Assembly (NCBI GenBank): GCA_036788695.1
Contig: DAIQMY010000002.1
Span: forward strand, 66,394 to 130,393
Reading direction: 5' to 3'
DNA from: Candidatus Levyibacteriota bacterium
GTDB lineage: Bacteria; Patescibacteriota; Microgenomatia; Levybacterales; GWA1-39-11
DNA length: 64,000 nucleotides
The position numbers were made by a program, and so were the translations under genes. Numbering within the stretch: position 1 is the stretch's first letter; each line of letters opens with the position of its first letter. Positions 1,473 to 62,338 of the stretch are shown in pieces. Below the pieces are notes generated by a model. It saw only the letters and a program-made list of their open reading frames with translations, did not search any database and was not told the origin of the DNA.

Positions 1473-2404
1473 AATTAAACATTCACCCAAGTTCATTTGT
1501 AGCAACAAAAAAAATTGGGGAAAATACAAAAATATGGGCATTTTGCAACATACTGCAAGGTGCAAGAATTGGAGAAGGCTGCAACATCTGTGATCACACA
1601 TTTATAGAAAATGATGTGATAGTAGGGAATAATGTTACGGTTAAGTGTGGAGTTCAGCTTTGGGACGGAATAAGAATTGAGGATAATGTATTCATAGGAC
1701 CAAACGCGACATTTACCAATGATATATTTCCAAGAAGTAAAAAATATCCTAAAAACTTTTTAAATACCATTGTTAAAAAAGGTGCGTCTATTGGTGCGAA
1801 TGCTACAATTCTTCCAGGGCTTGTAATTGGAGAAAACGCTATGGTTGGGGCTGGAGCAGTGGTTACGAAAAATGTGCCTGAAAACGCAGTTGTTGTAGGA
1901 AACCCTGCGTCAATCGTAGGATACACAAATGTAAGGAATACACCAATTACAAAAAAAACAAACCAAGAAATTCAAAACGAGAGAAAAATAAAAACAGAAG
2001 TAAAAGGTGTTGAAATTTACAAAATTCCAAAGGCAAGTGATTTACGTGGAGATTTATCATTCATTGAGTATAAAAAAAATATTCCTTTTTTGGTAAAACG
2101 ATTTTTTATGGTCTATAACGTTCCCAGTAAGGAGATCAGGGGAGAGCATGCTCACAAAAAAAACCATCAATTTTTAATTTGTCTCAAGGGGTCATTGAGT
2201 GTGATTGTTGATGATGGGAGAAAAAGCATAGAGATTCCCCTGAAGGAGGGTGATTCTGGAATTTATATTCGCCCGCTTGTATGGGGGATTCAATATAAAT
2301 ATACACCGGATGCAATCCTTTTAGTTTTTGCATCAGGTGAGTATGACCCTACGGAATATATTCGTGACTATAAAGAGTTCCTACAAATTGTCAAAAAAAA
2401 GTAA
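1469..2404 (+). CDS. Bifunctional WxcM-like protein: N-terminal hexapeptide-repeat N-acetyltransferase (FdtC-like) fused to a C-terminal FdtA-like cupin (dTDP-4-keto-6-deoxyhexose 3,4-isomerase)
   Basis: Residues 1-150 show left-handed beta-helix hexapeptide repeats ([25 protein letters not shown]...[24 protein letters not shown]). Residues 190-311 ([35 protein letters not shown]) resemble the FdtA/WxcM C-terminal cupin. Confidence 0.6.
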
Positions 2405-5769: not shown

Positions 5770-8061
5770 ATGAAATTTAAAATCCTTAATCTCCTAACTG
5801 CTGTTTTTCTTATTGCTCTTCCTTATTATATATTTGATGGCAAAATGTATTTGGGAGGGGATGACACAAGAATATTTTATTCATACCCGCTTGATTTTTT
5901 AAAAAACGTTACATATTTTTCTTGGTATAAGATTTCGTCTATGGGCATAAATGGTCCAAGTCAGTATTTAGCGCCATTTTTGCTATTTACTTCCTTTGTA
6001 CATATTTTTATTTCAAGTAAAGTAATTTTAAACTACCTTGCATTTTCTATGCCCTTGGTGCTGGGATTTATATATTTTCAGATGACTGTAAAGGAGTTAT
6101 TTGGATTAGATAAAAAAAATAGGTACGAGTTATATGTCGGAAGCTTATTTTATGTTCTGTCTCCAATATTAATTATAAACCAGTTGTTTGTATTTCTCAT
6201 TTCTATTTGGTTAATAGGTTTAATACCTATTCTGGTATACAATTTCTTGAAATATCTCCGAACGGGAAATTTTAAGTATGTTTTCGTATCTTCACTATGG
6301 TGTTTACTCTTTGCATTTGCGCTTTACGCAGTTCCTTGGATTTTAGGATTTCTGATACCTGTAGTTTTTGGATTATTTACTCTTGCATTCTTTTTTACAA
6401 AAAAAGAAATTGTTTATTTTTTGAGACGACTTTTTATATTTACTTCATTTATTGTTTTATCTCAGGCATTCTGGCTTACCGGATTCATTTCACAGTATTT
6501 AGATTTGGGTCAGGACAGTTTTGCATCTAAATTTTTATCAAAGGGGTTTGTTGACACATTTACTCCAACAGTTTTAACTTCTGCAACGGGCAATATTCTA
6601 TATCCGCTTTTAAATCTGTTTCATAGACAAATTGCATTTGATTTCTCATGGAAGTTAAAAAATGATTATATTTACTATTATGATAAATTTTTTCTGTTAA
6701 ATACTCTATATATAGTAGTGCTAGCATTTGGGATATTGTATTTTAAGAAATATTTAGACAAAAAAAACCAAAGAATATATATATCCCTGCTTGTGTCTTT
6801 TTTTGCAGCATTGTATTTTTTTACAGTAAACATTGGTCCATTGAAAGAGTTGTTTATCTTGCTAGGTCAAGTTCCGGGTTTTACAATGTTTAGAAATTTC
6901 TTTGATAAATTTGCGCCTGGTTATGTCATCATTTATTCAACTATTATCTCAATAAGTCTAGTCATAGTTTCCAATGCGTTTCCTAATAAAAAGTATATTT
7001 TTTTAACAGCGTTTCTTTTAGTTGTTATGATAAATTTTATTCCAGTTAAGTCTACTGTCAATTCTCCACTATGGACTACTGATAATATTTCAAAAACAGT
7101 AATTTTGCCCCAGGAGTATTTGAATTTCATGAATTATATTAAGCATAATATATCTTCAACCAACAATATATTAAGTATTCCATTTGGAACATCAGCATAC
7201 ACGGTTATTGTAGATGAAAATAATCCTAAACACTTGTACTTGGGGGTATCACCAGTCAAAATATTCAGTGGCGTAAGTGATATTTCAGGACATTACTCAT
7301 TTGGTTATACGAGTCTTGCGGATGTAGTGGATGGATATATTATAAATAGGCAGTATGCTGCTTTACGCAAGGTAATGTTTGAGCATAATATGAATTATGT
7401 TTTGTATACAGTAAATGTACCCAAGGAATTAATTCACTCGTACGCATTTAATACTGATTTGTATATTGCACAAGATGCTCGATTTAGAAAGGAAATTTCA
7501 GGGAAAAAAATTGCTCAAAGCTCAAACGGTAATTACATTTTATACGAGGCTAAAAAAATTAATTCAATTTTAAAATCAAAGAATATATATTTTAAGAAAA
7601 TTAGTCAAGTAAAATATAAAATTTACATAAAAGGACTATCTGGTACTCAGGATTTATCTTTTCTTGATTCTTTTCATGCAGGGTGGAAATTGTATCCTGT
7701 AAAAAATCCATCACTAACTTTCTGTACTGATCCGAAAGTAAATAAAGAAACATCTGTTGTAGAGTGTATCCAGGATGATAAATTATTTGAGGTACAAGAT
7801 TTAGGGTACCTTTTTAGTAAAAATATCTTCGCAAACGTTCATACCGTTCAGTACGACTATGCTCATAAGTGGGAAATAAATCCTGAGCATTTTAGAGAAA
7901 GAATGGGAGATGCGTACTATAAAAAAAATAAGGATGACAGTATTGATATTGAAATGGACTTGTACTTTGTTCCTCAAATATATTTTTACTTTGGGGTAGG
8001 TATTTCTGTGATTGTGTATTTGGGGGGATTGATATATTACCTTACGAATAAAGAAAGATAA
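5770..8061 (+). CDS. Large polytopic membrane protein (~13 TM helices N-terminal, ~300-aa extracytoplasmic C-terminal domain); GT-C/YfhO-like glycosyltransferase candidate
   Basis: Hydrophobicity pattern read from the translation. Sits inside the glycan cluster. GDD near the N-terminus. No firm family assignment. Confidence 0.35.
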   Translation: MKFKILNLLTAVFLIALPYYIFDGKMYLGGDDTRIFYSYPLDFLKNVTYFSWYKISSMGINGPSQYLAPFLLFTSFVHIFISSKVILNYLAFSMPLVLGFIYFQMTVKELFGLDKKNRYELYVGSLFYVLSPILIINQLFVFLISIWLIGLIPILVYNFLKYLRTGNFKYVFVSSLWCLLFAFALYAVPWILGFLIPVVFGLFTLAFFFTKKEIVYFLRRLFIFTSFIVLSQAFWLTGFISQYLDLGQDSFASKFLSKGFVDTFTPTVLTSATGNILYPLLNLFHRQIAFDFSWKLKNDYIYYYDKFFLLNTLYIVVLAFGILYFKKYLDKKNQRIYISLLVSFFAALYFFTVNIGPLKELFILLGQVPGFTMFRNFFDKFAPGYVIIYSTIISISLVIVSNAFPNKKYIFLTAFLLVVMINFIPVKSTVNSPLWTTDNISKTVILPQEYLNFMNYIKHNISSTNNILSIPFGTSAYTVIVDENNPKHLYLGVSPVKIFSGVSDISGHYSFGYTSLADVVDGYIINRQYAALRKVMFEHNMNYVLYTVNVPKELIHSYAFNTDLYIAQDARFRKEISGKKIAQSSNGNYILYEAKKINSILKSKNIYFKKISQVKYKIYIKGLSGTQDLSFLDSFHAGWKLYPVKNPSLTFCTDPKVNKETSVVECIQDDKLFEVQDLGYLFSKNIFANVHTVQYDYAHKWEINPEHFRERMGDAYYKKNKDDSIDIEMDLYFVPQIYFYFGVGISVIVYLGGLIYYLTNKER

Positions 8062-51525: not shown

Positions 51526-52674
51526 ATGTTCATCAGACCACAAACAGCTTCATTTGCAAAAATTAGAGTAATAGGTATAGGTGGAGGTGGCGGAAATGTT
51601 GTCAATTCCATGATTCGTGAATCCCAGATAAAAGGGGTAGACTTTATTGCTATAAATACAGATGGTCAGGCACTTCTTAACTCACAAGCATCAGCAAAAA
51701 TTCAGATAGGGGAGAACTTAACGAAAGGATTAGGGTCAGGAGGAAATCCTGAAATCGGTGAAAAATCTGCTCTTGAGTCCCGCGATAAAGTAAAAGAGTT
51801 ATTGGAGGGAACGGATATGGTGTTTATCACAGCAGGTATGGGAGGCGGAACAGGAACCGGGGCTGCCCCAGTTATTGCTGAAGTTGCAAAAGAGGTAGGA
51901 GCTTTAACTGTTGCGGTAGTGACTAAGCCGTTTACGTTTGAGGGTACCAGGCGAGCTGTTGCAGCAGATGAGGGGATAGAACAGCTAAAGGATAAAGTAG
52001 ACACACTTATTGTAATCCCCAACCAGAGAATCTTAGAAGTAGTAGATAAAAAGCTTTCTCTTTTGGAGGCGTTTAAAATTGCTGATTCCGTTCTGAATCA
52101 TGGCGTGCAGGGAATTTCAGATTTGATAACTATTCCTGGATTGGTGAATGTAGACTTTGCTGATGTGAAGTCTATCATGAGTGATGCAGGATCAGCACTT
52201 ATGGGAATAGGGATAGGAGTTGGAGAGAATAGAGCTCAGCATGCGGCACGTCAGGCTATCTCATCTCCGCTTTTGGAGGTATCCATGGAAGGAGCACGCG
52301 GAGTACTCTTTAACATTATAGGTGGACTTGATATAACCATGTCTGAAGTTGACGAGGCTTCAAAGATCATAACGGCAGCAGCTGATCCGGATGCGAATAT
52401 TATATTTGGTGCTACAATTGATGAAACTATGCATGATCAGATAAAGATTACGGTTATTGCAACAGGATTTGATGAGTCCAGACGAAGGCTTAGAGAGTTT
52501 GCACAATCATCAGGAGTTCCATTTCAAGCACCTTCATATGAGGAAAAAAAGCAGGAGCAGGTAACCGTAACGTCTTCGCAAAGCACACAGCAAGAAGTAG
52601 CTCAAGAGAAGAAGAAAGAGGAAGAAGGAGAGGACTTTTTTGACATCCCCGCCTTCCTAAGACAGAGGAATTAA
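51526..52674 (+). CDS. ftsZ: Cell division GTPase FtsZ
   Basis: [35 protein letters not shown] (tubulin signature), C-terminal tail [10 protein letters not shown]. Confidence 0.9.
52647..52664 (+). repeat. Direct repeat copy 1 (CCCCGCCTTCCTAAGACA), within the ftsZ 3' end that encodes the PAFLRQ tail
   Basis: Exact 18-mer repeated at 53066-53083. A diverged copy lies at 61600-61617. Confidence 0.8.
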
Positions 52675-52676
52675 AA

Positions 52677-53063
52677 ATGAGGAGAGAAAGATTAATATCA
52701 AGTTTGCCTGTAAATCTTGCTACCAGAATTGACGCAGGGTTAACATTGGGTAGAGTTATCAAGGAGTCAAGAAATAACCCAAATGTTAAAGGAGTAGAAA
52801 TACACATAGGAGAAGTTGAAAACCTCGTGCATCTTGCAATAAAAGGACAAGGAAACATGTGTGATGTTTCTAAAGCAGCTCTTGTTCAAAATGAGGGATC
52901 TGACGAAATTACTAATAAATACGGAGAATCGAATCTAATTGTTTCTCATTCCACTGACTTGTCAAGCAGTCGGGAGTTATCTGATATAGGTCCTTACAAA
53001 GACACCTCCGGTAGCGATTTATTTGGTAATCAAATTGTCGGTGTTTGGAAACCTCGTAGATAA
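52677..53063 (+). CDS. Hypothetical 128-aa protein in a ~0.4 kb cassette flanked by perfect 18-bp direct repeats
   Basis: ORF starts 3 nt after the ftsZ stop. No recognisable motif. Confidence 0.4.
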   Translation: MRRERLISSLPVNLATRIDAGLTLGRVIKESRNNPNVKGVEIHIGEVENLVHLAIKGQGNMCDVSKAALVQNEGSDEITNKYGESNLIVSHSTDLSSSRELSDIGPYKDTSGSDLFGNQIVGVWKPRR

Positions 53064-53065
53064 AA

Positions 53066-53083
53066 CCCCGCCTTCCTAAGACA
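53066..53083 (+). repeat. Direct repeat copy 2. In frame it reads N-P-A-F-L-R-Q-R-N-stop, just after the stop of the 128-aa ORF.
   Basis: Identical 18-mer. Regenerates an ftsZ-tail-like coding end. Confidence 0.8.
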
Positions 53084-53089
53084 ACGAAA

Positions 53090-53584
53090 CTAACTTTTGC
53101 CTATCTTTTTTAAAACTTCTCCCATTTTTTTTCCAAAGTCGCTGGAGTTGACGATATAATCATGAAACATTTGTTTGAATTCAGTTAATACTTTATCTCT
53201 GTCATTTGGTTGAGAGTTAGCTATGGTTACAGCTAACTGATATAACAGAATTGGGGAGATATCAAGCCACTTACCGTTAATTCTAAGGAAGATTAAGATG
53301 GTCATTACAGCAATTCTTTTGTTCCCATTTGCGAAAGGGTGATTTTTTATCAATGAATAAAACAAAGCTGCAGTTAGGTCAACTAATGTTGGATTATCTG
53401 TATTATGAAATGTATTTTTAGGAGAAGCCAAGGATGATTCTAGCAAGGGAATATCCCGTGTTGAATAGTCAGGAATTGGCTCGCCGAACGACATAAGTTC
53501 TCTAGCGAGGTTGAAGCAGATAAACTCAAAATCTTCTACGTTTAACCACTTAGGCTGCAGCAAGTCTTCGGAATGTTTCCTCAT
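53090..53584 (-). CDS. doc: Fic/Doc-family toxin (death-on-curing type)
   Basis: HPFANGNKRIAV matches the Fic/Doc motif HPFx[DE]GN[GK]R. Size ~160 aa. Confidence 0.7.
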   Translation of the reverse strand: MRKHSEDLLQPKWLNVEDFEFICFNLARELMSFGEPIPDYSTRDIPLLESSLASPKNTFHNTDNPTLVDLTAALFYSLIKNHPFANGNKRIAVMTILIFLRINGKWLDISPILLYQLAVTIANSQPNDRDKVLTEFKQMFHDYIVNSSDFGKKMGEVLKKIGKS

Positions 53585-53675
53585 ATTGTTTTACACCTTT
53601 GCTTACTGCCTTTTTAATTATTTTAGCTTTCTTAGGGTTATTTTTTTCGTATTTTTTGATTTGAGAATTTGTCAT
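53550..53675 (-). CDS. Possible 41-aa lysine-rich upstream partner ORF overlapping the doc start (antitoxin candidate)
   Basis: ATG at 53675. Translation MTNSQIKKYEKNNPKKAKIIKKAVSKGVKQYEETFRRLAAA. Overlaps doc by ~35 nt as in phd-doc pairs. Too short to assign. Confidence 0.2.
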   Translation of the reverse strand: MTNSQIKKYEKNNPKKAKIIKKAVSKGVKQYEETFRRLAAA

Positions 53676-53736
53676 GAATTTATTATAACACAATAGTTAT
53701 ATTACACAGCAATTATATGTTGCGCGACATGAAGGT

Positions 53737-54099
53737 TTATGGACGCTCATTGAATCTTTGAGTAATGATTGTATGGTCTGCTCTTAAAAGAGATAAAACA
53801 TAGCATTTAGTTTTTTTGTTCTTAGCTGTAAAAGTTATGATTTCTCTTTCAACTTCTTGAAAGAAAGGCCAGTGAAATCCCTTTGCATCAGCTGTAAGTA
53901 TGAGTGAACCAGTTAAAATAGCAGTAGCACAAATAAACTTGTCCCCATGATCTATAGAGTTCACATCTACATTTTCTAATTTCATGATGTTGTCAAGTTG
54001 AGCAGCAGCTACTAAAACTTCTACGGATAAAAAGTAACGAAAGTAAGGGTTTAATAGTTCTAGCATTCTTTTTTCCTTATCTTGTTTGTTGCCCCTCAA
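53737..54099 (-). pseudogene. PIN-domain-like remnant (C-terminal half only)
   Basis: FICATAILTGSLILTADAKGF resembles the last PIN strand/helix (IAATAL..LVTRN..DF). The upstream reading frame is open but has no start codon before a stop at 54172, so the N-terminal part is missing. Confidence 0.3.
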
Positions 54100-54379
54100 G
54101 AGTTCAAGTCCGTGTTGAAAGGGGATGGTGGAAAATACTTTCTCAATTAAAAACTGATACAGGGAAGGGCTTTAAAGAGCTTATAGAGGATGCTTTAGTT
54201 AACACCTATTGCATAGGAAAAAATGGAAAACCTGAAAAAGTTTCAAATCACCAGCGACAAGCGAAAAATACTGTTCTCGCGAGGAACTGAAACATAGAGT
54301 AGCTTGTGGTTTGAGAGTAGGGATTAGGTTTTCTTAATCTCTACAAATTAGGCCTTATAGCTTTGTCATCAAGACGTAT

Positions 54380-55129
54380 TTGAGGTATACTACGGGAGTG
54401 AAAAACGAAGCCTCGACATATTTTTTCATTGGTAGAATTTCTGACTTTTCTGCCGAGTATCAAGTGCAAAATAAATTTATCGATGGCAATTACGTGTTTG
54501 AGTTATTTATGAGTGGTATTTCTATATGGGGGAAATCAGATAAACCCTTTGAAGAAGTCCGCTCTGAAATTATACAAATGCTAGACACAATCTTTGGTTT
54601 ATTTACTCTTTCTACAAATAAACCTCTTATTTATACACTTGAGCACTGGGTGGAGACAAAGGAAAATGTTGCTACGAAAAATATAATTGGTTGGTTCAAG
54701 CCTACTAATAACCCCGTTAGAGTTCGTTCAATGAGAAGCCCTATTAACACAGCTTGGAAAAATTCTGTTAAGTACTGTAGAAAGGTATTGAGCTCTAACC
54801 CAAACTATAGCCTTGCATTACAGGACTATCATAAGTCAATTATAGATACGGGTGATGAGGCTTTCTTTTATGCGTATAGAGCTGTAGAAGATATTTGCAG
54901 GGCTGTATCTGGAATGGACGATACAAAAGAGAGTGCATGGGATAAAATGCATAAGGATTTAGGAACTACTAAGGAGCAGTTAGACTCATTATTGAAGGTT
55001 GCTGAAGAAATAAGGCATGGTAAGAAAAATACGCAAAAAATTAAAGATGCAAGAACAAAAAGAGCAGAGTTATTAGGTGCCTCAAAGCAGATAGTTGAAA
55101 TTGCTTTTAATAAACATATATTTATGTAG
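54380..55129 (+). CDS. Hypothetical protein (249 aa) inside the island
   Basis: Clean ORF, no recognisable motif. Confidence 0.35.
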   Translation: MRYTTGVKNEASTYFFIGRISDFSAEYQVQNKFIDGNYVFELFMSGISIWGKSDKPFEEVRSEIIQMLDTIFGLFTLSTNKPLIYTLEHWVETKENVATKNIIGWFKPTNNPVRVRSMRSPINTAWKNSVKYCRKVLSSNPNYSLALQDYHKSIIDTGDEAFFYAYRAVEDICRAVSGMDDTKESAWDKMHKDLGTTKEQLDSLLKVAEEIRHGKKNTQKIKDARTKRAELLGASKQIVEIAFNKHIFM

Positions 55130-55200
55130 TTTTTAGTACTTCATTTGTTTCAAGGTGATGTTGTCTTTTCAAGAGAGTGGAATAAGAGCTATAAGATTGA

Positions 55201-55896
55201 TTAACTCCACAACGAATAAGATATGTCTCTAAATTTAATCTTTATATCCGGTTTTTCATCCGCCCAGGCTTTAAGATAAACCCTTCTTCTGAAGGATGGG
55301 TCTATTCGTTGTGCAAAAATTACTTCGTTTTGGAGTTTTACTTGCATAAAGTTGTCTTTGTTGATAGTGACATGAAACGTTCTTAATCCAGGGTTATCTG
55401 ACTTAACAGAGCTAAAATCGGGGTTTCCAAGGTCAAAATTGTCATAGTACTTCCATACAGGTAGCAAGTTTCCTTTCTTTTCATATTCGCTTCCAGTGTG
55501 AATTGTTATGCCTTTTTTTGCGTCTACAATTTCATTAGCTCTTAATCTTTCATTTCCGATTACAAATCCTGCTCGTCAAAACTCAGGTTGCCCTTTTAAT
55601 GTGATAGAAAAAGTTAAAGATTTTATATAACGACCCTTCAAGTCTAAAGACAACACGTCTTGTTTCTGTGGCCATTCTTCACGTTCTCTACAATGAGCTA
55701 TCCAGTTTTCAGGAGACATTTTACTCAAATAGCCTTTTATTGTTTCCCATGCCTGATTTAGTAAATCTGATATCTGTTTACCGAAAACAACTTTTATAAA
55801 AAAAACAATTATTAGTAACGAGATTACATGGACATAAATGTTTATTGCTGGAATTTCTATTGACTGAAGTGAGACTTTGATTGTTTGAGTATTCAT
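55201..55896 (-). pseudogene. Membrane-anchored protein gene interrupted by a single in-frame TGA (at 55576-55578)
   Basis: ORFs 55576..55896 and 55201..55467 are in the same frame. The 36 codons between them are open (…KGQPEF*RAGFVIGNERLRANEIVDAKKGITIHTGSEYEKKGN-LPVWKYY…). TGA is clearly a stop elsewhere in this window. Confidence 0.35.
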
Positions 55897-56026
55897 AAAT
55901 CCATCATATTATATCAGTATAGAACAAAAATAAATTACCAGTTATGGTTGAAATGTGCCTACATATAATAATCATGCGACATAAAACTGCTACATATTGT
56001 TGACATTTAAAAGTGAATGATAAATA

Positions 56027-56218
56027 ATGATAAATATGACCAATATGAAAGTTGAAGAGTATTACTCTTTAGATGAGGTCGCAAAATTGCTAAAAGTTGC
56101 ATATCTTACAGTTTATCGTTGGGTACAAACTAAAAAGCTCACTGCTCTTAAGGCTGGTAAGCAATATAGGATTAAAAAGGAAGACTTAGACTCTTTTTTG
56201 AAAAATTATAAAGAATAA
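56027..56218 (+). CDS. Excisionase/MerR-superfamily helix-turn-helix DNA-binding protein
   Basis: YSLDEVAKLLKVAYLTVYRWVQTKKLTALKAGKQYRIKKEDLDSFL matches the HTH_17 excisionase-type pattern. Confidence 0.5.
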   Translation: MINMTNMKVEEYYSLDEVAKLLKVAYLTVYRWVQTKKLTALKAGKQYRIKKEDLDSFLKNYKE

Positions 56219-56223
56219 TTACT

Positions 56224-58077
56224 ATGAAAGACCCAATTGATAAAATAAATAAAAAAGCTACTCCTAACTTAAAGGAACTCCTGAAAAGTGACGCACCTTA
56301 CATCGTAGAAGACGGTAAGGTAAATCTAGAAAAGCTGAAGGGCTTGCTTGCAGGAGAAACGACCGAAAAGGAAGACGATAGGTTTTATTTTAACTGGGCT
56401 GGTAAAGACAAAGTGTTTCAAGCTATCCAAGCCCCTGCCTATTCAACCCTAGTACCTCAAAAAAATAAGTCCATCGGATGGGATGAGACTGAAAATCTAA
56501 TGATAGTTGGAGAAAACTTAGAAACTCTTAAGCTACTCCTAAAACCTTACTTTGGTAAAGTTAAGGTTATATACGTAGACCCACCTTACAATACTGGGAA
56601 TGATTTTATTTATAAAGACAATTTTTCATTACCACTAAAGGAATACTTTGAGAGAACTGGTCAAAAAGATGGAAATGGTAGTCGTATGACAACTAATTCA
56701 GAAGCAAATGGTCGGTTTCATTCTGATTGGTTAAATTTTATGTTCACACGTCTATTTTTAGCACGAAATTTACTAACAGACGATGGTATTATTTACATTT
56801 CTATAGACGATAAGGAAGTACATCATTTAAGGATGTTAATGGATGAGGTATTTGGCGAGGATAATTTTCTAACAATGTTCTTGTGGAAGAGTAGGCAGAC
56901 GACGGATAGCAGGAAAGACACACACACTTCAACAGACCACGAATATATAATTTCATACTGTAAAAATATAAGCAACTTTAGTGCAAAAGGCAGTCCAATA
57001 GATGTTACAAAGTATTCAAATCCCGATAATGACCCCAGAGGGGATTGGGCAAGTATTGACTTGTCTGTTCAGGCTACAAAAGACCAGCGTCCAAACCAAT
57101 TTTACGATATAGTTGACCCTAACACTGGAAACAAATATCCAGCTAACCCCAATAGAGTATGGTCAAAATCTAGGGCAGTTGTAGAGCAAATGATAAAGGA
57201 GAAGAGAATTTTATTTCCTGAAAGTGGTAATGGTCGCCCAAGAGAGAAAAAGTTTATTGCAGACTTAAAATCAGGTATTACTGGTTTTTCCTCATGGTTA
57301 GATAGTACAAAAGTTGGGTATACAACAAATGGAACTAGAGAGCTATCTGAGTTGTTTGAAGGTAGAATTTTTGATTTTCCAAAGCCAACAAGTTTATTAA
57401 AAACCATATTTAATCAGTCTCTAGGTAAAGACGATTTGATTATGGATTTTTTTGCTGGTTCGGGTTCCACGGGTCATGCGGTCGCACAGCTCAATAAAGA
57501 AGATGGAGGGAATAGAAAGTTTATTTTAGTTCAGATACCCGAACCAACAGACGAAATAAGTGAAGCATTTAGAGCCGGTTATAAATCCATTTCAGATGTA
57601 TGTATTGAACGACTTAAACGAGTATCTAAAAAAGTTGAAAATAGTCTAAAATTCAAGGTATTTAGTCTTTCTTCTTCAAATTTTAATCTTAAAGATGAGT
57701 TTGAATTAGCTGAAAATAAAGACCTTGGAGAGCTTAAGAATACCTATCTAAAGGAGCTAGGACTGTATGTAGACCAACCAACCGTAATAGCAGCCAACAC
57801 TTTGGATATCGTCTATGAAATAATTCTAAAAAATGGTTTTTCTCTTAATTCCAAAATTGATGAGCTAAAGCTAGGTTCCAACAATTTCTATAAGGTAACG
57901 GATGCGGAGAATGAACTAGAGATACACGTATCCCTTGACTCCAAAATTGAGGATGTGTCGGTGGAAGTTATACGTACTACAGAGTATAAGGGTAAGACGT
58001 TTGTCTTTTATGATAATGCCCTTACTGATAGCCAAAAGATAAATCTAAATACCTTTGTGAAATTGCAGGTAATTTAA
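56224..58077 (+). CDS. mod: Type III restriction-modification methyltransferase (Mod), N6-adenine, beta class
   Basis: VIYVDPPYNTGNDFIYKDNF (motif IV DPPY) precedes DFFAGSGSTGHAV (motif I FxGxG). The central region is variable, as expected for a target-recognition domain. Confidence 0.8.
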   Translation: MKDPIDKINKKATPNLKELLKSDAPYIVEDGKVNLEKLKGLLAGETTEKEDDRFYFNWAGKDKVFQAIQAPAYSTLVPQKNKSIGWDETENLMIVGENLETLKLLLKPYFGKVKVIYVDPPYNTGNDFIYKDNFSLPLKEYFERTGQKDGNGSRMTTNSEANGRFHSDWLNFMFTRLFLARNLLTDDGIIYISIDDKEVHHLRMLMDEVFGEDNFLTMFLWKSRQTTDSRKDTHTSTDHEYIISYCKNISNFSAKGSPIDVTKYSNPDNDPRGDWASIDLSVQATKDQRPNQFYDIVDPNTGNKYPANPNRVWSKSRAVVEQMIKEKRILFPESGNGRPREKKFIADLKSGITGFSSWLDSTKVGYTTNGTRELSELFEGRIFDFPKPTSLLKTIFNQSLGKDDLIMDFFAGSGSTGHAVAQLNKEDGGNRKFILVQIPEPTDEISEAFRAGYKSISDVCIERLKRVSKKVENSLKFKVFSLSSSNFNLKDEFELAENKDLGELKNTYLKELGLYVDQPTVIAANTLDIVYEIILKNGFSLNSKIDELKLGSNNFYKVTDAENELEIHVSLDSKIEDVSVEVIRTTEYKGKTFVFYDNALTDSQKINLNTFVKLQVI

Positions 58078-58080
58078 CTC

Positions 58081-60684
58081 ATGCTAAAGCTAAAGTTTAA
58101 TCCCAACCTAGACTACCAGCAGGACGCGATAAAAGCGGTAACAGATATTTTTGAAGGGCAGGTAAAGACAGAGAAGAAGCATATTTTCCAAGTTATACCC
58201 AACAAGCTCACTTTAGAAAAAGACATGCTCTTGGCAAACCTCCAGACTGTACAGGAAAACAATAATCTAAAAAAAAGTCAAGATTTTACTACACCTCTTA
58301 ACATAACTCTAGAGATGGAAACGGGTACCGGTAAAACCTATGTCTACCTACGCTCTATTTTAGAGTTATATCAAAAATACGGATTTTCTAAGTATATTAT
58401 CGTCGTTCCAACCGTAGCAATTAAAGAGGGTGTATTGAAGTCGTTGAGTATCACCAAAGACCATTTTAAAGGTCTGTATAACAATCTGTCCTACGAGTAT
58501 TACGAGTACGTATCTACTAAGCTAATAACAGTTCGAATGTTTGCACAATCCTCACATCTACAAATAATGATTATTACCAAGGATGCATTTAATAAAGATA
58601 AAAATATCATCCATAACAGCCACGACCGCATGGGAGATAAGCCAATTTCTCTTATTCAGAAAACCAACCCCATTGTTATCTTGGACGAACCACAAAAGAT
58701 GGGTGGAGAGGCAACTCAGTGGGGCATAAAAGAGCTAAATCCTCTCATTGTGCTTAGATATTCTGCAACACATAGGGATATTGAAAATTTGGTTTACAAG
58801 CTTACTCCATTTGATGCCTATGCGAAAGGTTTAGTTAAAAAAATTGAGCTAGCAACTGTTGTGGAGGAGAGTGACCCAAATACAAAAAAAATAATTCTGG
58901 AAAACATATATTCCTCTGGAGTTAGTCTTAAAGCAAAGTTAAAAGTGTTTATTAAACAAGCAGCATCCGTGCAACTTAAAACCATTACTGTAGGTTCTGG
59001 GGATAATTTAGCAACTAAGTCTAAAAACCCTTACTATGATGGGTTTATCGTCTCCGAAATTAATCTAGGTAATAGCTACATACTCTTTTCAAATGGACTA
59101 AAGGTATTCGTGGGACAGTCGTCCGTAAACGAGGACGAAATAGTACGGATGATGGTGCGAGAAATAGTCTTAGAGCATTTGGAAAAAAAGCGAAAGTTTA
59201 ATCCTTTGGGGATTAAGACCCTTTCCCTTTTCTTTATCCACCGTGTAGATGATTACCTGCCTGTAGATGGGTGGCTACGCAAGATGTTTGAAGAAGAATA
59301 CCTGAAGGCTACAAATTCAAATTACCAAGAGTTTAAGACCACTCGACCAGACAGGGTACACTCTGGGTACTTCTCGGAGATGAAAAAAACCTCCTCAATT
59401 GAAAATGACGAAAAAGCTTATGAACTGATTATGAAAGACAAGGAAAAATTACTATCCTTAGATAATCCCGTGGAGTTTATTTTTTCACATTCTGCCCTGC
59501 GTGAAGGATGGGACAATCCCAATATCTTTAACATCTGTACCTTGGCATATTCAACTTCTGATATTAAAAAAAGACAGGAAATTGGACGAGGTTTACGCCT
59601 GGTGGTAAATCAACAGGGAGACCGCATATACGACCGAGATATAAACATCCTTACAGTCGTTACTAATGAGAGTTATCAGAATTACGTATCAGAATTACAG
59701 ACTGAGTTTAGGGATGATGCAGGAGAAAGTGCTCCGCCGATAGAACACAAGAAAAAACGAGTGAGTTTAGCCTTAAAAGATGATGCAGTAGCTAATAAGA
59801 GCTTTTTGAGCCTTTGGCAGCTGTTAGCAAGGCGAGCTAAGTTTGTCGTTTCCATGCAGGAAGAGGAAATAGTAAGCAAGTGTATAGACGAGATTAACAA
59901 AATTGACGAAAGCAGTATACGTGAGATACGGGTACGCATTACTAAAACTGGAATAGACACCCTTTTACTGGATGACATTAGAGGAAATATAGTTAGTGAC
60001 CGAAGCTATGAAACCGGAAATGCTAAACACTTACCAAACATTATTATGCTTCTCCAGGCTGATACAAAATTAACCAAGAAAACTTTGTTAGCAATACTGC
60101 AAAGAGTAAGTAATTTTGACCTGTTTTTTAAAAACTCTTATCAGTACTCAAGTCTCGTTTCTTCTGCCATAAAAACCGTTACATCAGACTTAGCATCTAA
60201 GGATATTAGTTATTTAGAGATTAACGACGATTATGGATTGTCGCTTTTTAATAAAGAAGTCCAAACTTACGAAAAATACTTAGTAAAGTTGGAGAACGCT
60301 AAAACCCTTTATAAAACTAATAACAACGGACAAATAGACGCAGTGATAATTGACCCTAGTCCATCTGCAGAAGGTGTATCACAACCAGAAAAAAAGTTTG
60401 CTGAGCAGGCAGACCGTAACGATACTGTCAAGTTTTTCTTTAAGCTTCCAGATACCTATTCTATAGAAACTCCTGCAGGGAAATATACGCCAGACTGGGC
60501 GTTAGTTGTAGAAAATAGTGATAAAGCTCAAGTTTATTTTGTTGCGGAAACTAAGGATACTAACAACATTAGTAGCCTCCGCCAAGAAGAGCAGATAAAA
60601 ATTCTTTCTGCACGAGCTATGTTTAAAAAAATTATGCCAGAGGTTATTTTCAAGGCTCCTGTAAGCGAATTTAGTGATTTATAG
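58081..60684 (+). CDS. res: Type III restriction enzyme Res subunit (SF2 helicase plus C-terminal PD-(D/E)xK nuclease)
   Basis: LEMETGTGKTYV is the Walker A. ILDEPQKM is motif II. C-terminal YTPDWALVVEN...FVAETKD is the PD...ExK nuclease motif. Immediately follows mod. Confidence 0.8.
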   Translation: MLKLKFNPNLDYQQDAIKAVTDIFEGQVKTEKKHIFQVIPNKLTLEKDMLLANLQTVQENNNLKKSQDFTTPLNITLEMETGTGKTYVYLRSILELYQKYGFSKYIIVVPTVAIKEGVLKSLSITKDHFKGLYNNLSYEYYEYVSTKLITVRMFAQSSHLQIMIITKDAFNKDKNIIHNSHDRMGDKPISLIQKTNPIVILDEPQKMGGEATQWGIKELNPLIVLRYSATHRDIENLVYKLTPFDAYAKGLVKKIELATVVEESDPNTKKIILENIYSSGVSLKAKLKVFIKQAASVQLKTITVGSGDNLATKSKNPYYDGFIVSEINLGNSYILFSNGLKVFVGQSSVNEDEIVRMMVREIVLEHLEKKRKFNPLGIKTLSLFFIHRVDDYLPVDGWLRKMFEEEYLKATNSNYQEFKTTRPDRVHSGYFSEMKKTSSIENDEKAYELIMKDKEKLLSLDNPVEFIFSHSALREGWDNPNIFNICTLAYSTSDIKKRQEIGRGLRLVVNQQGDRIYDRDINILTVVTNESYQNYVSELQTEFRDDAGESAPPIEHKKKRVSLALKDDAVANKSFLSLWQLLARRAKFVVSMQEEEIVSKCIDEINKIDESSIREIRVRITKTGIDTLLLDDIRGNIVSDRSYETGNAKHLPNIIMLLQADTKLTKKTLLAILQRVSNFDLFFKNSYQYSSLVSSAIKTVTSDLASKDISYLEINDDYGLSLFNKEVQTYEKYLVKLENAKTLYKTNNNGQIDAVIIDPSPSAEGVSQPEKKFAEQADRNDTVKFFFKLPDTYSIETPAGKYTPDWALVVENSDKAQVYFVAETKDTNNISSLRQEEQIKILSARAMFKKIMPEVIFKAPVSEFSDL

Positions 60685-60689
60685 CATTT

Positions 60690-61418
60690 ATGAACAAATT
60701 TAAGACGTCGGCAATAACAATTCTGACTGAGGCAGGCAATCCTTTGCACTATAAGGAAATTACTCGTCTTGCCCTGGACAAAGGTATTTTAGAGACTGAG
60801 GGTGCTACTCCAGATGCTTCTATGAATGCTCAGATAGTAATGGAAATTAAGAACAAAGGGAAACTATCAGATTTTATTAGAACTGCACCTTCTACTTATG
60901 CCCTTAACCCTGACAAGTCAAAGGTAACAACAGAATTAGAAGAGGAAGAGCTATTGGAAGAAAAGTTAGTAGTCGGTAGTGGCTACATCGGTAAAGCTGG
61001 CGAGTTTTTAGTCTGTAGCGAATTACTATTCAGAGGCTATAACGCTAGTATTATGAGTGTGGATACAGGTGTAGACATAGTTGCTACAAAGGAAAATCGC
61101 CTTTATGGTGTACAGGTTAAGACAGCTAGATTAAATGACTATAACACCTACGTATTTGACGTTCGAAGAGTATCTTTTGATAGACATAATAATGGTAATA
61201 CTTTTTATATTTTTGTACTTTACAGTGAGAAAAAAACCAACTTTCTTATTCTTCCTTATTTTGAGATTGAAAAAAAAGTTCATGATGGAGCTGTTTTGGA
61301 AGTTGGACATGGGTTGCGTTACCGAATAAATATAAAGTTAAGAAATAATAATGTGTATCTTGGCACTCTAGACCACGAAATGAATTACTTCTTGAACAAT
61401 TGGTCTGTTCTTAAGTAA
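60690..61418 (+). CDS. HARE-HTH (winged-helix) N-terminal domain fused to a PD-(D/E)xK / Hjc-like nuclease domain. R-M-associated accessory nuclease candidate.
   Basis: N-terminus ITILTEAGNPLHYKEITRLALDKGIL...GATPDASMNAQI resembles the HARE-HTH of RpoE-delta, Mrr and HB1. C-terminus GEFLVCSELLFRGYNA...VDTGVDIVA...LYGVQVKTA carries an E...D...(Q/E)xK pattern. Confidence 0.45.
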   Translation: MNKFKTSAITILTEAGNPLHYKEITRLALDKGILETEGATPDASMNAQIVMEIKNKGKLSDFIRTAPSTYALNPDKSKVTTELEEEELLEEKLVVGSGYIGKAGEFLVCSELLFRGYNASIMSVDTGVDIVATKENRLYGVQVKTARLNDYNTYVFDVRRVSFDRHNNGNTFYIFVLYSEKKTNFLILPYFEIEKKVHDGAVLEVGHGLRYRINIKLRNNNVYLGTLDHEMNYFLNNWSVLK

Positions 61419-61599
61419 CAAAACAACTTTAACATCTGATTCAAATTCTTATTTGTAAAAACTCCAGGGCTAGATAAAGATTCTTCTTGACCCTCTGATT
61501 AAAAAAGTTTATATTCAATGGGAAGACATAGAAATCCCTTTTAATTAACGGTGTTTAGTAAAAGAGATTGAAGCTAAGAGCGGGTTATGTCTATAAAAT

Positions 61600-61617
61600 C
61601 CCCGCCTTCCTTGGGCA
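61600..61617 (+). repeat. Direct repeat copy 3 (CCCCGCCTTCCTtgGgCA, diverged). In frame it reads K-I-P-A-F-L-G-Q-R-N-stop.
   Basis: 12 identical nt plus similar flanks. About 27 of 33 nt match the ftsZ terminal codons. Confidence 0.6.
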
Positions 61618-61742
61618 GAGAAATTAAAGTAACCAGTTTTATTGAGAGAAGAATTTAATCAGCTCACCTGGTTTTTCCTGCAGATTTAGATTTAAATTAT
61701 TTTTGTTGAAATTTAATTTTTTTGAGAGTAAAATTCACCCGT

Positions 61743-62338
61743 ATGCCAAATTGGTTAGAGAGAATGACAGAAAATGCGAGAAATGAAATAGCAGCCCGGA
61801 AAAACGCTGAGACTGCAAAAAGAGAACAAGAAAGAATCGCAAGGCAAAAAGATTTAAAACAGCTAAAAGTTATTGAGGAGCAGGGAAAGGCAATGAGAAA
61901 AGAAAATAATATTTTTTTAGCCTCAGTTGAGAGTGCATATCGTCCAATTATGCTTCTTTCTGACATTAAAAATGGTCCATGGAGAGGGGAGGTAAGATAG
62001 AAGTCTTTCGACAGGAACATACTTCTAGAAGATCTTATATATTGGGTCATACCTATGATGATGTATGGGTTGAGCAGAATAGTTATTATGGAGACACTGC
62101 TCATCCTGTAAAAAAGGGGACTTTTGTTGGACTTTCTTTCGAGGGCGCGAGAGGCAATTTTAAGATGAGTGTTTTCTCTTCATGTACGGATAGAATTGAG
62201 TTATGGAATGCGGACGCGAGTCGTGATGCCCTGCAGCAGGCGTTAGCAGATGAGACGAGTTATAGACTGCTTAATAATTTGCTTCCAGATCAACTTGACC
62301 CAAAAGCGCGGCGACTTTGGCGCTTGTTTAAGCACTAA
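61743..62338 (+). pseudogene. Possible single gene split by a -1 frameshift at a G-run (GAGAGGGGAGG, ~61985-61995). Unknown function.
   Basis: ORFs 61722..62000 and 61979..62338 overlap by 22 nt in adjacent frames. A one-nucleotide slip in GGGG joins ...NGPWRG to GGKIEVFRQEH... Confidence 0.3.

Follow-up and report, generated by a model that had tools for sequence, protein, structure and literature searches.

We analysed a 64,000-nt window from the genome of a Candidatus Levyibacteriota bacterium (GCA_036788695.1, contig DAIQMY010000002.1, positions 66,394 to 130,393 of the forward strand) and describe here the region downstream of the cell division gene ftsZ. The relatives of its FtsZ likewise place the bacterium among the Levybacteria (Patescibacteria/CPR). 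The 3' end of ftsZ, which encodes the C-terminal tail of the protein, occurs three times in this region (copies T1, T2 and T3), and the copies delimit a short single-gene cassette and a larger island:

51526..52674, + strand: ftsZ, 382 aa, the target gene (Pfam Tubulin 5.7e-52, FtsZ_C 1.9e-35)
52642..52674, + strand: T1, the functional FtsZ tail, an attL-like junction (core 18-mer at 52647-52664)
52677..53063, + strand: 128-aa open reading frame (ORF), an ORFan and the sole gene of the 419-bp cassette
53064..53093, + strand: T2, a displaced tail copy (NPAFLRQRN-stop) that closes the cassette on the right and bounds the island on the left
61595..61627, + strand: T3, a decayed displaced tail (KIPAFLGQRN-stop), the attR-like junction of the island

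In the window, ftsZ ends with GAC ATC CCC GCC TTC CTA AGA CAG AGG AAT TAA. The core 18-mer CCCCGCCTTCCTAAGACA is found exactly at 52647 and, 419 nt downstream, at 53066, and a copy with three mismatches lies at 61600. By chance one would expect about 0.04 matches, and 0/100 shuffles produced three or more. T1 and T2 have the entire 18-mer in common, and T2 and T3 share 12-13 nt, beyond which they diverge. All three copies close with an in-frame stop at the same relative position, and the differences between them are mostly synonymous (CAG AGG AAT, CAA CGA AAC and CAG AGA AAT). T2 begins immediately after the TAA of the 128-aa ORF, in the same frame, and its stop codon shares nucleotides with that of the Fic gene, which runs towards it from within the left end of the island. 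No tail repeats were found elsewhere in the window, all of them lying downstream of ftsZ, and a fourth copy sought between the 76-aa and 588-aa genes on the right flank was not found. The original prediction, made from the letters of the window, of three ftsZ 3' ends bounding two insertions thus holds, including the identical 18-mer that recurs 419 nt downstream as NPAFLRQRN-stop after the stop of the 128-aa ORF and the equivalent in-frame stop of each copy. Its third copy does read KIPAFLGQRN-stop, but had been placed at 61586-61618, about 9 nt too far left. Misassembly, against which the prediction had advised a check, was addressed in ENA ERZ794922, Logan SRR2107210 and SRR2107211, and NCBI GCA_964419005.1. 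The window junctions are identical in these four independent assemblies, and the structure is therefore not a misassembly.

Related contigs were gathered from many samples via exact-protein look-ups of FtsZ and FtsA; the loci and contigs compared with the window carry L numbers. Their FtsZ is identical or 99% identical. At least 11 contigs encode the same FtsZ protein but carry different genes downstream of it, and contigs with identical FtsZ or FtsA proteins show at least six arrangements directly after the tail. The arrangements, with the window for comparison, include:

Window: T1, 128-aa ORF, T2, island, T3, then genes of 198, 76, 588 and 201 aa
L176: ends like those of the window, with another Mod/Res pair in the middle
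L184: a cassette like the 128-aa one, then a tail-bounded island with a RelA/SpoT-like gene, Mod and Res
L008: two genes without known function between two tails
L006: a resident 101-aa gene immediately after the tail, no duplicated tail
L232 group: 6 kb (radical SAM, HD, PyrG, PfkB, SpeD) from the ftsZ tail to a second tail copy preceded by a conserved arm (described below)
L180/L179: the 128-aa cassette, one hybrid tail, the 198-aa gene

L180 and L179 supply the empty-site comparison that had been called for. They carry the cassette and precisely lack the 8.5-kb island, and their single hybrid tail combines the left flank of T2 with the right flank of T3. In BLAST, L180 follows the window collinearly as far as 53076 and from 61592 onwards; the two segments have 18 nt of the tail core in common, and the flanks are 96-97% identical. 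The islands of L176 and L184 hold other cargo and are bounded by tails like the window island, and the islands of the window and L176 share their ends (97.6% identity on the left, 80% on the right) but differ in their restriction-modification (R-M) genes. Ancestral synteny without repeats, which the original prediction had named as evidence against itself, is not what the comparison revealed, as near-identical strains differ in their insertions. L003/L007 were rejected as a naive empty site: their allele is a deletion, in L003 a plain microhomology deletion, that joins a Fic 3' remnant of ~40 nt to the last ~60 nt of the 588-aa gene. Scanning JGI metagenomes with FtsZ contributed only L091 and L153 and nothing closely related (identities of at most 78%). 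The tail-bounded unit of L232 (11206-17215; also in L233-L241) encodes CTP synthase, a PfkB kinase, SpeD, a radical SAM protein and an HD hydrolase, and none of these housekeeping-type genes is present in the window. Core metabolic genes may travel as cargo in this unit, or the locus may have been rearranged.

The 3' end of ftsZ itself is mosaic. Ten of the 22 differences between the ftsZ genes of L003 and the window fall in the last 28 nt (Fisher p = 7e-12). L004/L008 differ from the window at one position within nt 961-1121 and at eight in the last 28 nt (p = 7e-7), and L006 shows 98 differences in the first 939 nt and two in the last 210 (p = 5e-7). The proteins compared are identical though the tail DNA is recoded, and the tail stop codon varies between TAA, TAG and TGA. 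This mosaicism indicates that the tail has a history separate from that of the gene body, and it is the pattern that would be expected if each integration swaps the tail. Just ahead of the tail, the linker-coding stretch of ftsZ nt 961-1121 (window 52485-52645) has a single variable site among these strains, and the sequence upstream differs by 7-10%, with all differences synonymous. This suggests either a recombination or hitch-hiking tract tied to island exchange or an unrecognized constraint at the level of the DNA.

An element that carries its own integrase was found in L242. In L232, from a sister lineage with 99% identical FtsZ, a displaced tail copy with its arm reads AAAAT-TCCCGCATTTCTAAGACAGAGGAACTAA and is followed by the T-ATG of a 102-aa gene. 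This copy, unoccupied in L232, is the exact site of a 7.7-kb element in L242. The left junction (attL) is AAAAT-TCCCGCATT-CTTGAGACAGAAGAATTAA-AGTTTTAGC and the right junction (attR) is ...TTAGGTGTTTTTAGCAAGAAACGAAGCTAGAAACAGGAGATGTCTTAGAC-ATTCCCGCATT-TCTAAGACAAAGGAATTAA-T-ATG, where ..TTAGAC precedes ATTCCCGCATT; the junctions place the probable crossover within ATTCCCGCATT. The attP inferred from them, GAC ATT CCC GCA TTC TTG AGA CAG AAG AAT TAA, is an FtsZ tail in frame. The element thus has a complete replacement FtsZ tail, yet it occupies a displaced tail copy and not the live one. It encodes a 360-aa tyrosine integrase (PF00589, 3.7e-28) together with small ORFs, an HTH_3 protein, Vsr, a C5 methylase, an NgoFVII-like endonuclease and a DUF3800 protein. 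A search for such an integrase element with an att-like sequence had been part of the original prediction, and its proposal that each integration brings a replacement 3' end for ftsZ is supported both by this attP and by the mosaic last ~28 nt: element sequence restores the reading frame, leaving recoded tails and identical proteins. The scaffold of L243 terminates at both att repeats, which an assembly break could explain. For the window, the junctions deduced in the same terms are ...GTTATGTCTATAAAATCCCCGCCTTCCTAAGACAACGAAACTAACTTTTGCC for the attP of the island, TAGATAAAACCCCGCCTTCCTTGGGCAGAGAAATTAAAGTAAC for the island-free attB and ...CGTAGATAAAACCCCGCCTTCCTAAGACAGAGGAATTAAAAATGAGG for a circle of the cassette.

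The L242 integrase has 321 relatives at E ≤ 1e-10, of which the 120 best are 66-78% identical, in Levy-, Gottesman- and other Patescibacteria. The family is less than 30% identical to phage or characterized integrases, and Xer proteins are only distant kin. In 6/6 contexts examined the integrase gene lies just downstream of ftsZ, and in L245, L247, L248, L111 and L019 it lies within 2.5 kb of it (in L245 and L247, 130-175 nt past the ftsZ stop). A family member chosen blind to ftsZ, P0165, led to L248, which carries ftsZ, a degenerate second tail, a zeta-toxin cassette, a tail and the integrase. A tblastn search of 160 ftsZ-anchored loci (2.2 Mb) gave family matches only in L111, where the integrase follows ftsZ by 0.2 kb, and in L019, where a remnant adjoins a second tail, EIPASLRKK-stop. 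The arrangement of L247 mirrors the window: ftsZ with its tail, a 4.6-kb integrase element, arm and tail, a single-gene cassette encoding 157 aa, and a further tail. An integrase lies within the element in L242, L245, L247, L248 and L111, and in neither of the two window units.

A conserved arm of ~50 nt (GGTGTTTTTAG..GAAGCTA..) lies to the left of displaced tails and marks the right end of the elements. It is kept across unrelated cargo and species (window, L176, L184, L008, L013, L242, L247 and L091) and consists of a -10-like TATATT, TTAGGTGTTTTTAG, TGAAGCTAnAA and codons resembling (D)AWD. We interpret it as the putative P arm of attP. L013 has six copies of arm and tail, all on the + strand and all downstream of ftsZ, which divide a 9.6-kb array into six cargo blocks, with decayed tails at the distal end. 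Two other identities for the arm were considered and rejected. Indels between copies break the frame of any mini-ORF, and RNAalifold on 11 copies of arm and tail found 0 conserved pairs and hence no RNA or attC-like structure. Scans of IMG/VR for phage or plasmid carriers of the motif gave chance matches at most. In L091 (18627-18781), a lone inverted arm and tail abut the 3' end of a tRNA-Val gene in a housekeeping neighbourhood 7.6 kb downstream of ftsZ; they may mark a secondary site or have arisen by inversion.

Searching loci of the candidate phyla radiation (CPR) with each species' own tail core against its own ftsZ locus, we found extra copies to be enriched downstream of ftsZ: the + strand has 11 there (0.90 Mb) against 0 upstream (1.14 Mb), and the minus strand has 9 in 2.05 Mb. 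L013, L019, L061, L011 and L153 are the clear cases. Displaced ftsZ tails recur in several CPR lineages but are uncommon. In L153, a distant CPR member, the end of ftsZ (1247-1333) has an 87-nt second copy (5883-5969) that starts with ATG (MVTQKNKELEDEDDELEIPAFIRRKMGK, then a stop) and shows 11 differences, 10 of them synonymous. It lies 4.6 kb downstream, past alpha/beta-hydrolase, MurF-like and Ddl genes and a 93-aa + 210-aa pair, and could be a stand-alone gene for an FtsZ-tail peptide or a displaced tail. Tandem tail copies with spacers of only 19-30 nt occur in L061 (11128-11290), L011 (11104-11150) and L248 (6704-6758), and the spacers of L061 and L011 are alike (GAAGTT..CGGCGnGGCAnG) across the distant lineages Buchananbacteria and Levybacteria. 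They might represent units that are minimal or have been emptied, or footprints left by excision.

The analysis thus shows tail repeats, empty sites, a mosaic ftsZ end, an integrase element flanked by att sites, and an integrase family associated with ftsZ. On these grounds we propose that a family of integrative elements, found in Levybacteria and other Patescibacteria, attaches to the chromosome at the 3' end of ftsZ (~30 nt, conserved peptide DIPAFLRQ(R/K)N), and that the window holds two accreted units. We give this reading a probability of about 80%. Autonomous members would encode a tyrosine integrase and carry an attP with a full in-frame FtsZ tail and stop, preceded by the ~50-nt arm with its outward-facing promoter-like sequence. 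Strand exchange would occur inside CCCGCnTT(y), within the P-A-F codons, so that an integrated FtsZ would end in element-derived codons and the previous tail would come to lie on the other side of the element. A tandem array would grow as further elements entered the live tail or a displaced one, and the 419-bp ORFan cassette and the 8.5-kb defence island (Fic/Doc, type III R-M, HARE-HTH nuclease) would have accreted in tandem in this way. The two units of the window have direct repeats sharing the target core as their attL and attR (T1/T2 and T2/T3), and unoccupied sites exist for the island (L180/L179) and for the integrase element (L232 vs L242). The proposal of two tandem insertions at an att site is therefore upheld, but neither insertion encodes an integrase, and the units would be either decayed elements or cis-mobilizable units moved by an integrase in trans. 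They resemble cis-mobilizable elements (CIMEs) in being att-bounded and without int/xis; autonomous relatives use the ftsZ site in sister strains, and none is present in the window. We infer both that an integrase of this family inserted the two units and the order of events; L180 fits either order of arrival. The outward promoter and the Shine-Dalgarno-like AGAGGA have putative roles only.

Several results weigh against this proposal. Neither an integrase gene nor a remnant of one is present among or close to the window copies, in the next 8 kb, or in L176 or L184; the window was searched with Pfam on all island ORFs, a scan for the R..HxxR..Y motif and tblastn with three family integrases, and tblastn with the 12 other proteins of the L242 element gave no match in the window either. 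The 128-aa cassette has no recognizable P arm, and the arm of the island is degenerate, with 61539-61593 as the only match (E = 0.08) to a P-arm model that was built without the window lineage. Scans of IMG/VR with the motif and with tail patterns returned chance matches or nothing, and no circular or excised form was observed among the assembled contigs. The empty site of L180 may just as well be ancestral as the result of an excision. L245 and L247 were looked up because the lengths of their contigs matched those of FtsZ hits, a choice that is biased towards ftsZ. Finally, the last ~190 nt of ftsZ are near-invariant among strains whose gene bodies differ by 7-9%. This near-invariance (nt 961-1121) and the swap of cargo between conserved ends in L176 indicate that homologous recombination also acts at the locus.

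A first alternative takes homologous recombination as the whole explanation. The region would be a hotspot without site-specific integration, at which RecA-type swaps exchange cargo after DNA uptake between ftsZ as the left anchor and either the motif with T3 or the 588-aa gene as the right anchor, the tails being passive relics. The absence of an integrase from the window islands is consistent with it, as are the shared ends and different R-M cargo of the window and L176, the almost invariant ftsZ nt 961-1121 beside gene bodies that differ by 7-9%, and the plain microhomology deletion of L003. However, homologous exchange does not create duplicated tails, and it leaves unexplained the abrupt switch from identical core to diverged sequence within ~30 nt, the arm and tail that end unrelated cargo in other species, and an integrase element with a tail-encoding attP. 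We consider this alternative improbable. Far less probable still is ancestral synteny combined with a generic intergenic motif, regulatory or of the repetitive extragenic palindrome type, that merely resembles the end of ftsZ. Promoter-like hexamers do precede the motif, and arm and tail recur six times between the genes of L013 and once by tRNA-Val in L091. In the 64-kb window, however, the motif occurs only downstream of ftsZ, so that the generic motif named in the original prediction as grounds for its rejection did not materialize; near-identical strains show presence/absence polymorphism with breakpoints inside the tail, and the copies retain the FtsZ frame and stop and have no consensus RNA structure.

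Insertion driven by a homing endonuclease was also considered, in which a nuclease would cut the tail and repair would copy in the insert with a cleavage-resistant, synonymously recoded tail. In L006, a 223-aa protein encoded just downstream of ftsZ (1533-2204, minus strand) has four Pfam-scored NUMOD3 DNA-binding repeats and no recognizable catalytic domain. NUMOD3 is a motif typical of homing endonucleases. This protein, the PD-(D/E)XK protein at the right end of the island and the synonymous recoding of the tails all fit such a model, which we nevertheless regard as very unlikely, since the NUMOD3 protein lacks that domain, L006 has no duplicated tail, homing does not duplicate its target, and integrase elements account for the duplications directly. 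An assembly artefact, with chimeric joins induced by the repeats, can practically be discounted: one Logan assembly does break 56 nt past ftsZ, but two broken Logan contigs overlap by 27 nt in a manner consistent with the window, the junctions were assembled independently in four data sets, and the 18-nt repeat is shorter than assembler k-mers.

Three known classes of system were tried and rejected. There is no intI by the site, where ftsA lies upstream, and no attC-like hairpin (0 conserved pairs), as would be found with an integron. An integrative mobile element exploiting Xer at a dif site does not fit: T1 alone has a 5-bp inverted repeat, which is not kept in T2, T3 or L003, the sign of the GC skew does not switch here, and family members encode their own integrase. 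For a diversity-generating retroelement, no reverse transcriptase domain was found with Pfam, and the differences between copies are G/A, A/C and T/C and mostly synonymous.

ICESt1/ICESt3 and the related CIMEs occupy the 3' end of fda in Streptococcus thermophilus, where they accrete in tandem by site-specific recombination. The ftsZ elements agree with ICESt1/ICESt3 and CIMEs in placing a tyrosine-integrase element in the 3' end of an essential protein-coding gene, and with CIMEs in that att-flanked units without int/xis accumulate in tandem and are mobilizable in cis or in trans. They differ in the ftsZ-tail target, the CPR hosts and the integrases (less than 30% identical to characterized ones); no conjugation module was seen at the ftsZ site, and mobilization of the window units is presumed. 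In the SCCmec and psi-SCC (staphylococcal cassette chromosome) elements at rlmH (orfX) of staphylococci, repeats with the last codons and the stop likewise bound each unit of multi-unit arrays, some units of which have no recombinase genes, but SCC elements use large serine recombinases (CcrAB/C) where the ftsZ family uses a tyrosine integrase, and the ftsZ repeats are synonymously recoded and not identical. Phage 21 and e14 at Escherichia coli icd also bring an alternative, mostly synonymous 3' end that leaves the protein intact; there the replacement is ~160 nt by a single prophage, whereas at ftsZ it is ~30 nt with serial accretion, and the segment is a protein-protein docking peptide. Integrons resemble the ftsZ site in having small, apparently promoterless single-gene cassettes in an ordered array by a fixed site downstream of a strong transcription unit; at ftsZ, in contrast, no intI lies by the site, which is a conserved sequence without attC-like structure, and multi-gene islands are inserted too. 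The tycheposons of Prochlorococcus, the subject of bioRxiv 10.1101/2020.12.28.424599, are also tyrosine-recombinase elements that pile up with cargo-only relatives at a fixed site in streamlined genomes, with partial target copies at their boundaries and adaptive or defensive cargo; they target tRNA genes, whereas the ftsZ target is a protein-coding tail whose frame must be kept. The principle of a replacement 3' end, which the original prediction proposed and which is supported at ftsZ, is thus already known from fda, rlmH, icd and tRNA genes; the target, the host lineage and the integrase family are new. No report of ftsZ as an integration target was found in full-text searches of the literature, the coverage of which is incomplete, so that an earlier description may exist.

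The C-terminal peptide of FtsZ is a docking peptide for FtsA and other division proteins. At this locus, a mobile element supplies part of an essential and highly conserved protein, and because the targeted peptide motif cannot drift, the element would gain a broad host range. The integrase family is large in Patescibacteria and so far uncharacterized; its attB is predictable, it accounts for a defence-island hotspot in tiny genomes, and the conserved integrase/attB pair could serve genetic work in CPR bacteria, which are hard to manipulate. In annotation, stray FtsZ-tail fragments downstream of ftsZ flag island boundaries. We also offer, tentatively and with the expectation that it will more probably prove wrong, the idea that the ftsZ tail is an integron-like capture platform in CPR, at which an integrase acting in trans would insert minimal units for which the ~30-nt tail core suffices. 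Among these would be the 128-aa ORFan of the window, the 157-aa cassette of L247, the zeta toxin of L248 and the CNNM gene of L013. Such units would be expressed from the strong ftsZ transcript via AGAGGA within the tail codons, and housekeeping genes such as the PyrG/PfkB/SpeD block of L232 would also be relocated. If true, the platform would give these reduced genomes a general way of acquiring genes, and an integrase/attB pair would already be at hand with which to engineer Patescibacteria.

The 128-aa ORF of the cassette has no Pfam or PADLOC match. Only four homologues were found (81-99% identity), and in both contigs inspected (L183 and L184, of the same species group) the homologue directly follows ftsZ. 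AGAGGA inside the T1 tail lies 8 nt ahead of the ATG of the cassette gene and, as a Shine-Dalgarno-like sequence, may be used for its translation. The only empty-site candidate for the cassette is the diverged L003, where ftsZ is followed by a T2-like tail and the Fic remnant. The 128-aa ORF is in the same frame as T2 (window 52677-53093), with a single TAA between them, and the unrelated 157-aa cassette gene of L247 (9018-9534) has the same layout (..RYS-stop-IPAFLRQKN-stop). Read-through of the stop would append an FtsZ-like docking peptide to the 128-aa and 157-aa proteins, though the shared frame may be due to chance (~1 in 9). Homology among the genes directly after the tail was rejected: the 128-aa, 157-aa and 70-aa proteins are unrelated, and only the 101-aa protein of L006 and the 102-aa protein of L232 align, both representing a resident gene.

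The island and its right flank contain the following features:

53090..53584, - strand: toxin gene of the Fic/Doc family, leftmost in the island (Pfam Fic 2e-13; PADLOC PDC-S23 7.5e-14)
53550..53693, - strand: small ORF that overlaps the start of Fic and may encode an antitoxin; also annotated as a 41-aa gene
53737..55896, mixed strands: cargo without known function, namely a 120-aa ORF (-), a 249-aa DUF8168_C protein (+) and ORFs of 88 and 106 aa (-)
56027..56218, + strand: HTH_17 DNA-binding protein with an excisionase-type fold, directly upstream of mod (Pfam HTH_17 3.4e-14; PADLOC mad1 7.5e-8)
56224..60684, + strand: type III R-M system, Mod 56224-58077 and Res 58081-60684
60690..61418, + strand: HARE-HTH + PD-(D/E)XK nuclease-like protein, the last island gene (Pfam HARE-HTH 1.7e-14, PDDEXK_5 2e-6)
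61487..61594, + strand: right end of the island, with an outward promoter-like TTGACC-17-TATATT (61487-61515) and the degenerate P arm
61743..62338, + strand: 198-aa gene, resident right flank, frameshifted in the window strain

The Fic/Doc gene is conserved in L176, and its ~40-nt remnant adjoins ftsZ in the deletion allele of L003; the small ORF at 53550..53693 has no family match in Pfam. The cargo at 53737..55896 is replaced in L176. The HTH_17 protein is 31% identical to the HTH_17 protein that precedes a second integrase in L245. Mod and Res form one operon with the genes 3 nt apart and match PADLOC MTase_III (2.2e-169) and REase_III (2.2e-217) as well as Pfam N6_N4_Mtase, ResIII and RE_endonuc, which assigns them to type III R-M. 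Different type III R-M systems are carried by the three islands without an integrase (window 56027-61418, L176 13736-17692 and L184 1197-5737), and the integrase element of L242 carries a type II Dcm/Vsr/NgoFVII-like system instead. R-M modules seem to be preferred cargo at the ftsZ site and may stabilize the islands. L176 keeps the ~95-nt right flank of the island at 80% identity despite its other cargo. Promoter-like matches, of which the one at 61487-61515 is an example, are at chance level overall. The reverse complement of T3 (61599-61621, minus strand) scores as a terminator-like hairpin with a T-run, and the number of such matches in the region equals chance. The 198-aa gene is intact in L180, and the protein matches two frames of the window (61743-61988 and 61991-62335; tblastn); in the window strain the gene is split near 61988-61991 into ORFs at 61722-62000 and 61979-62338.

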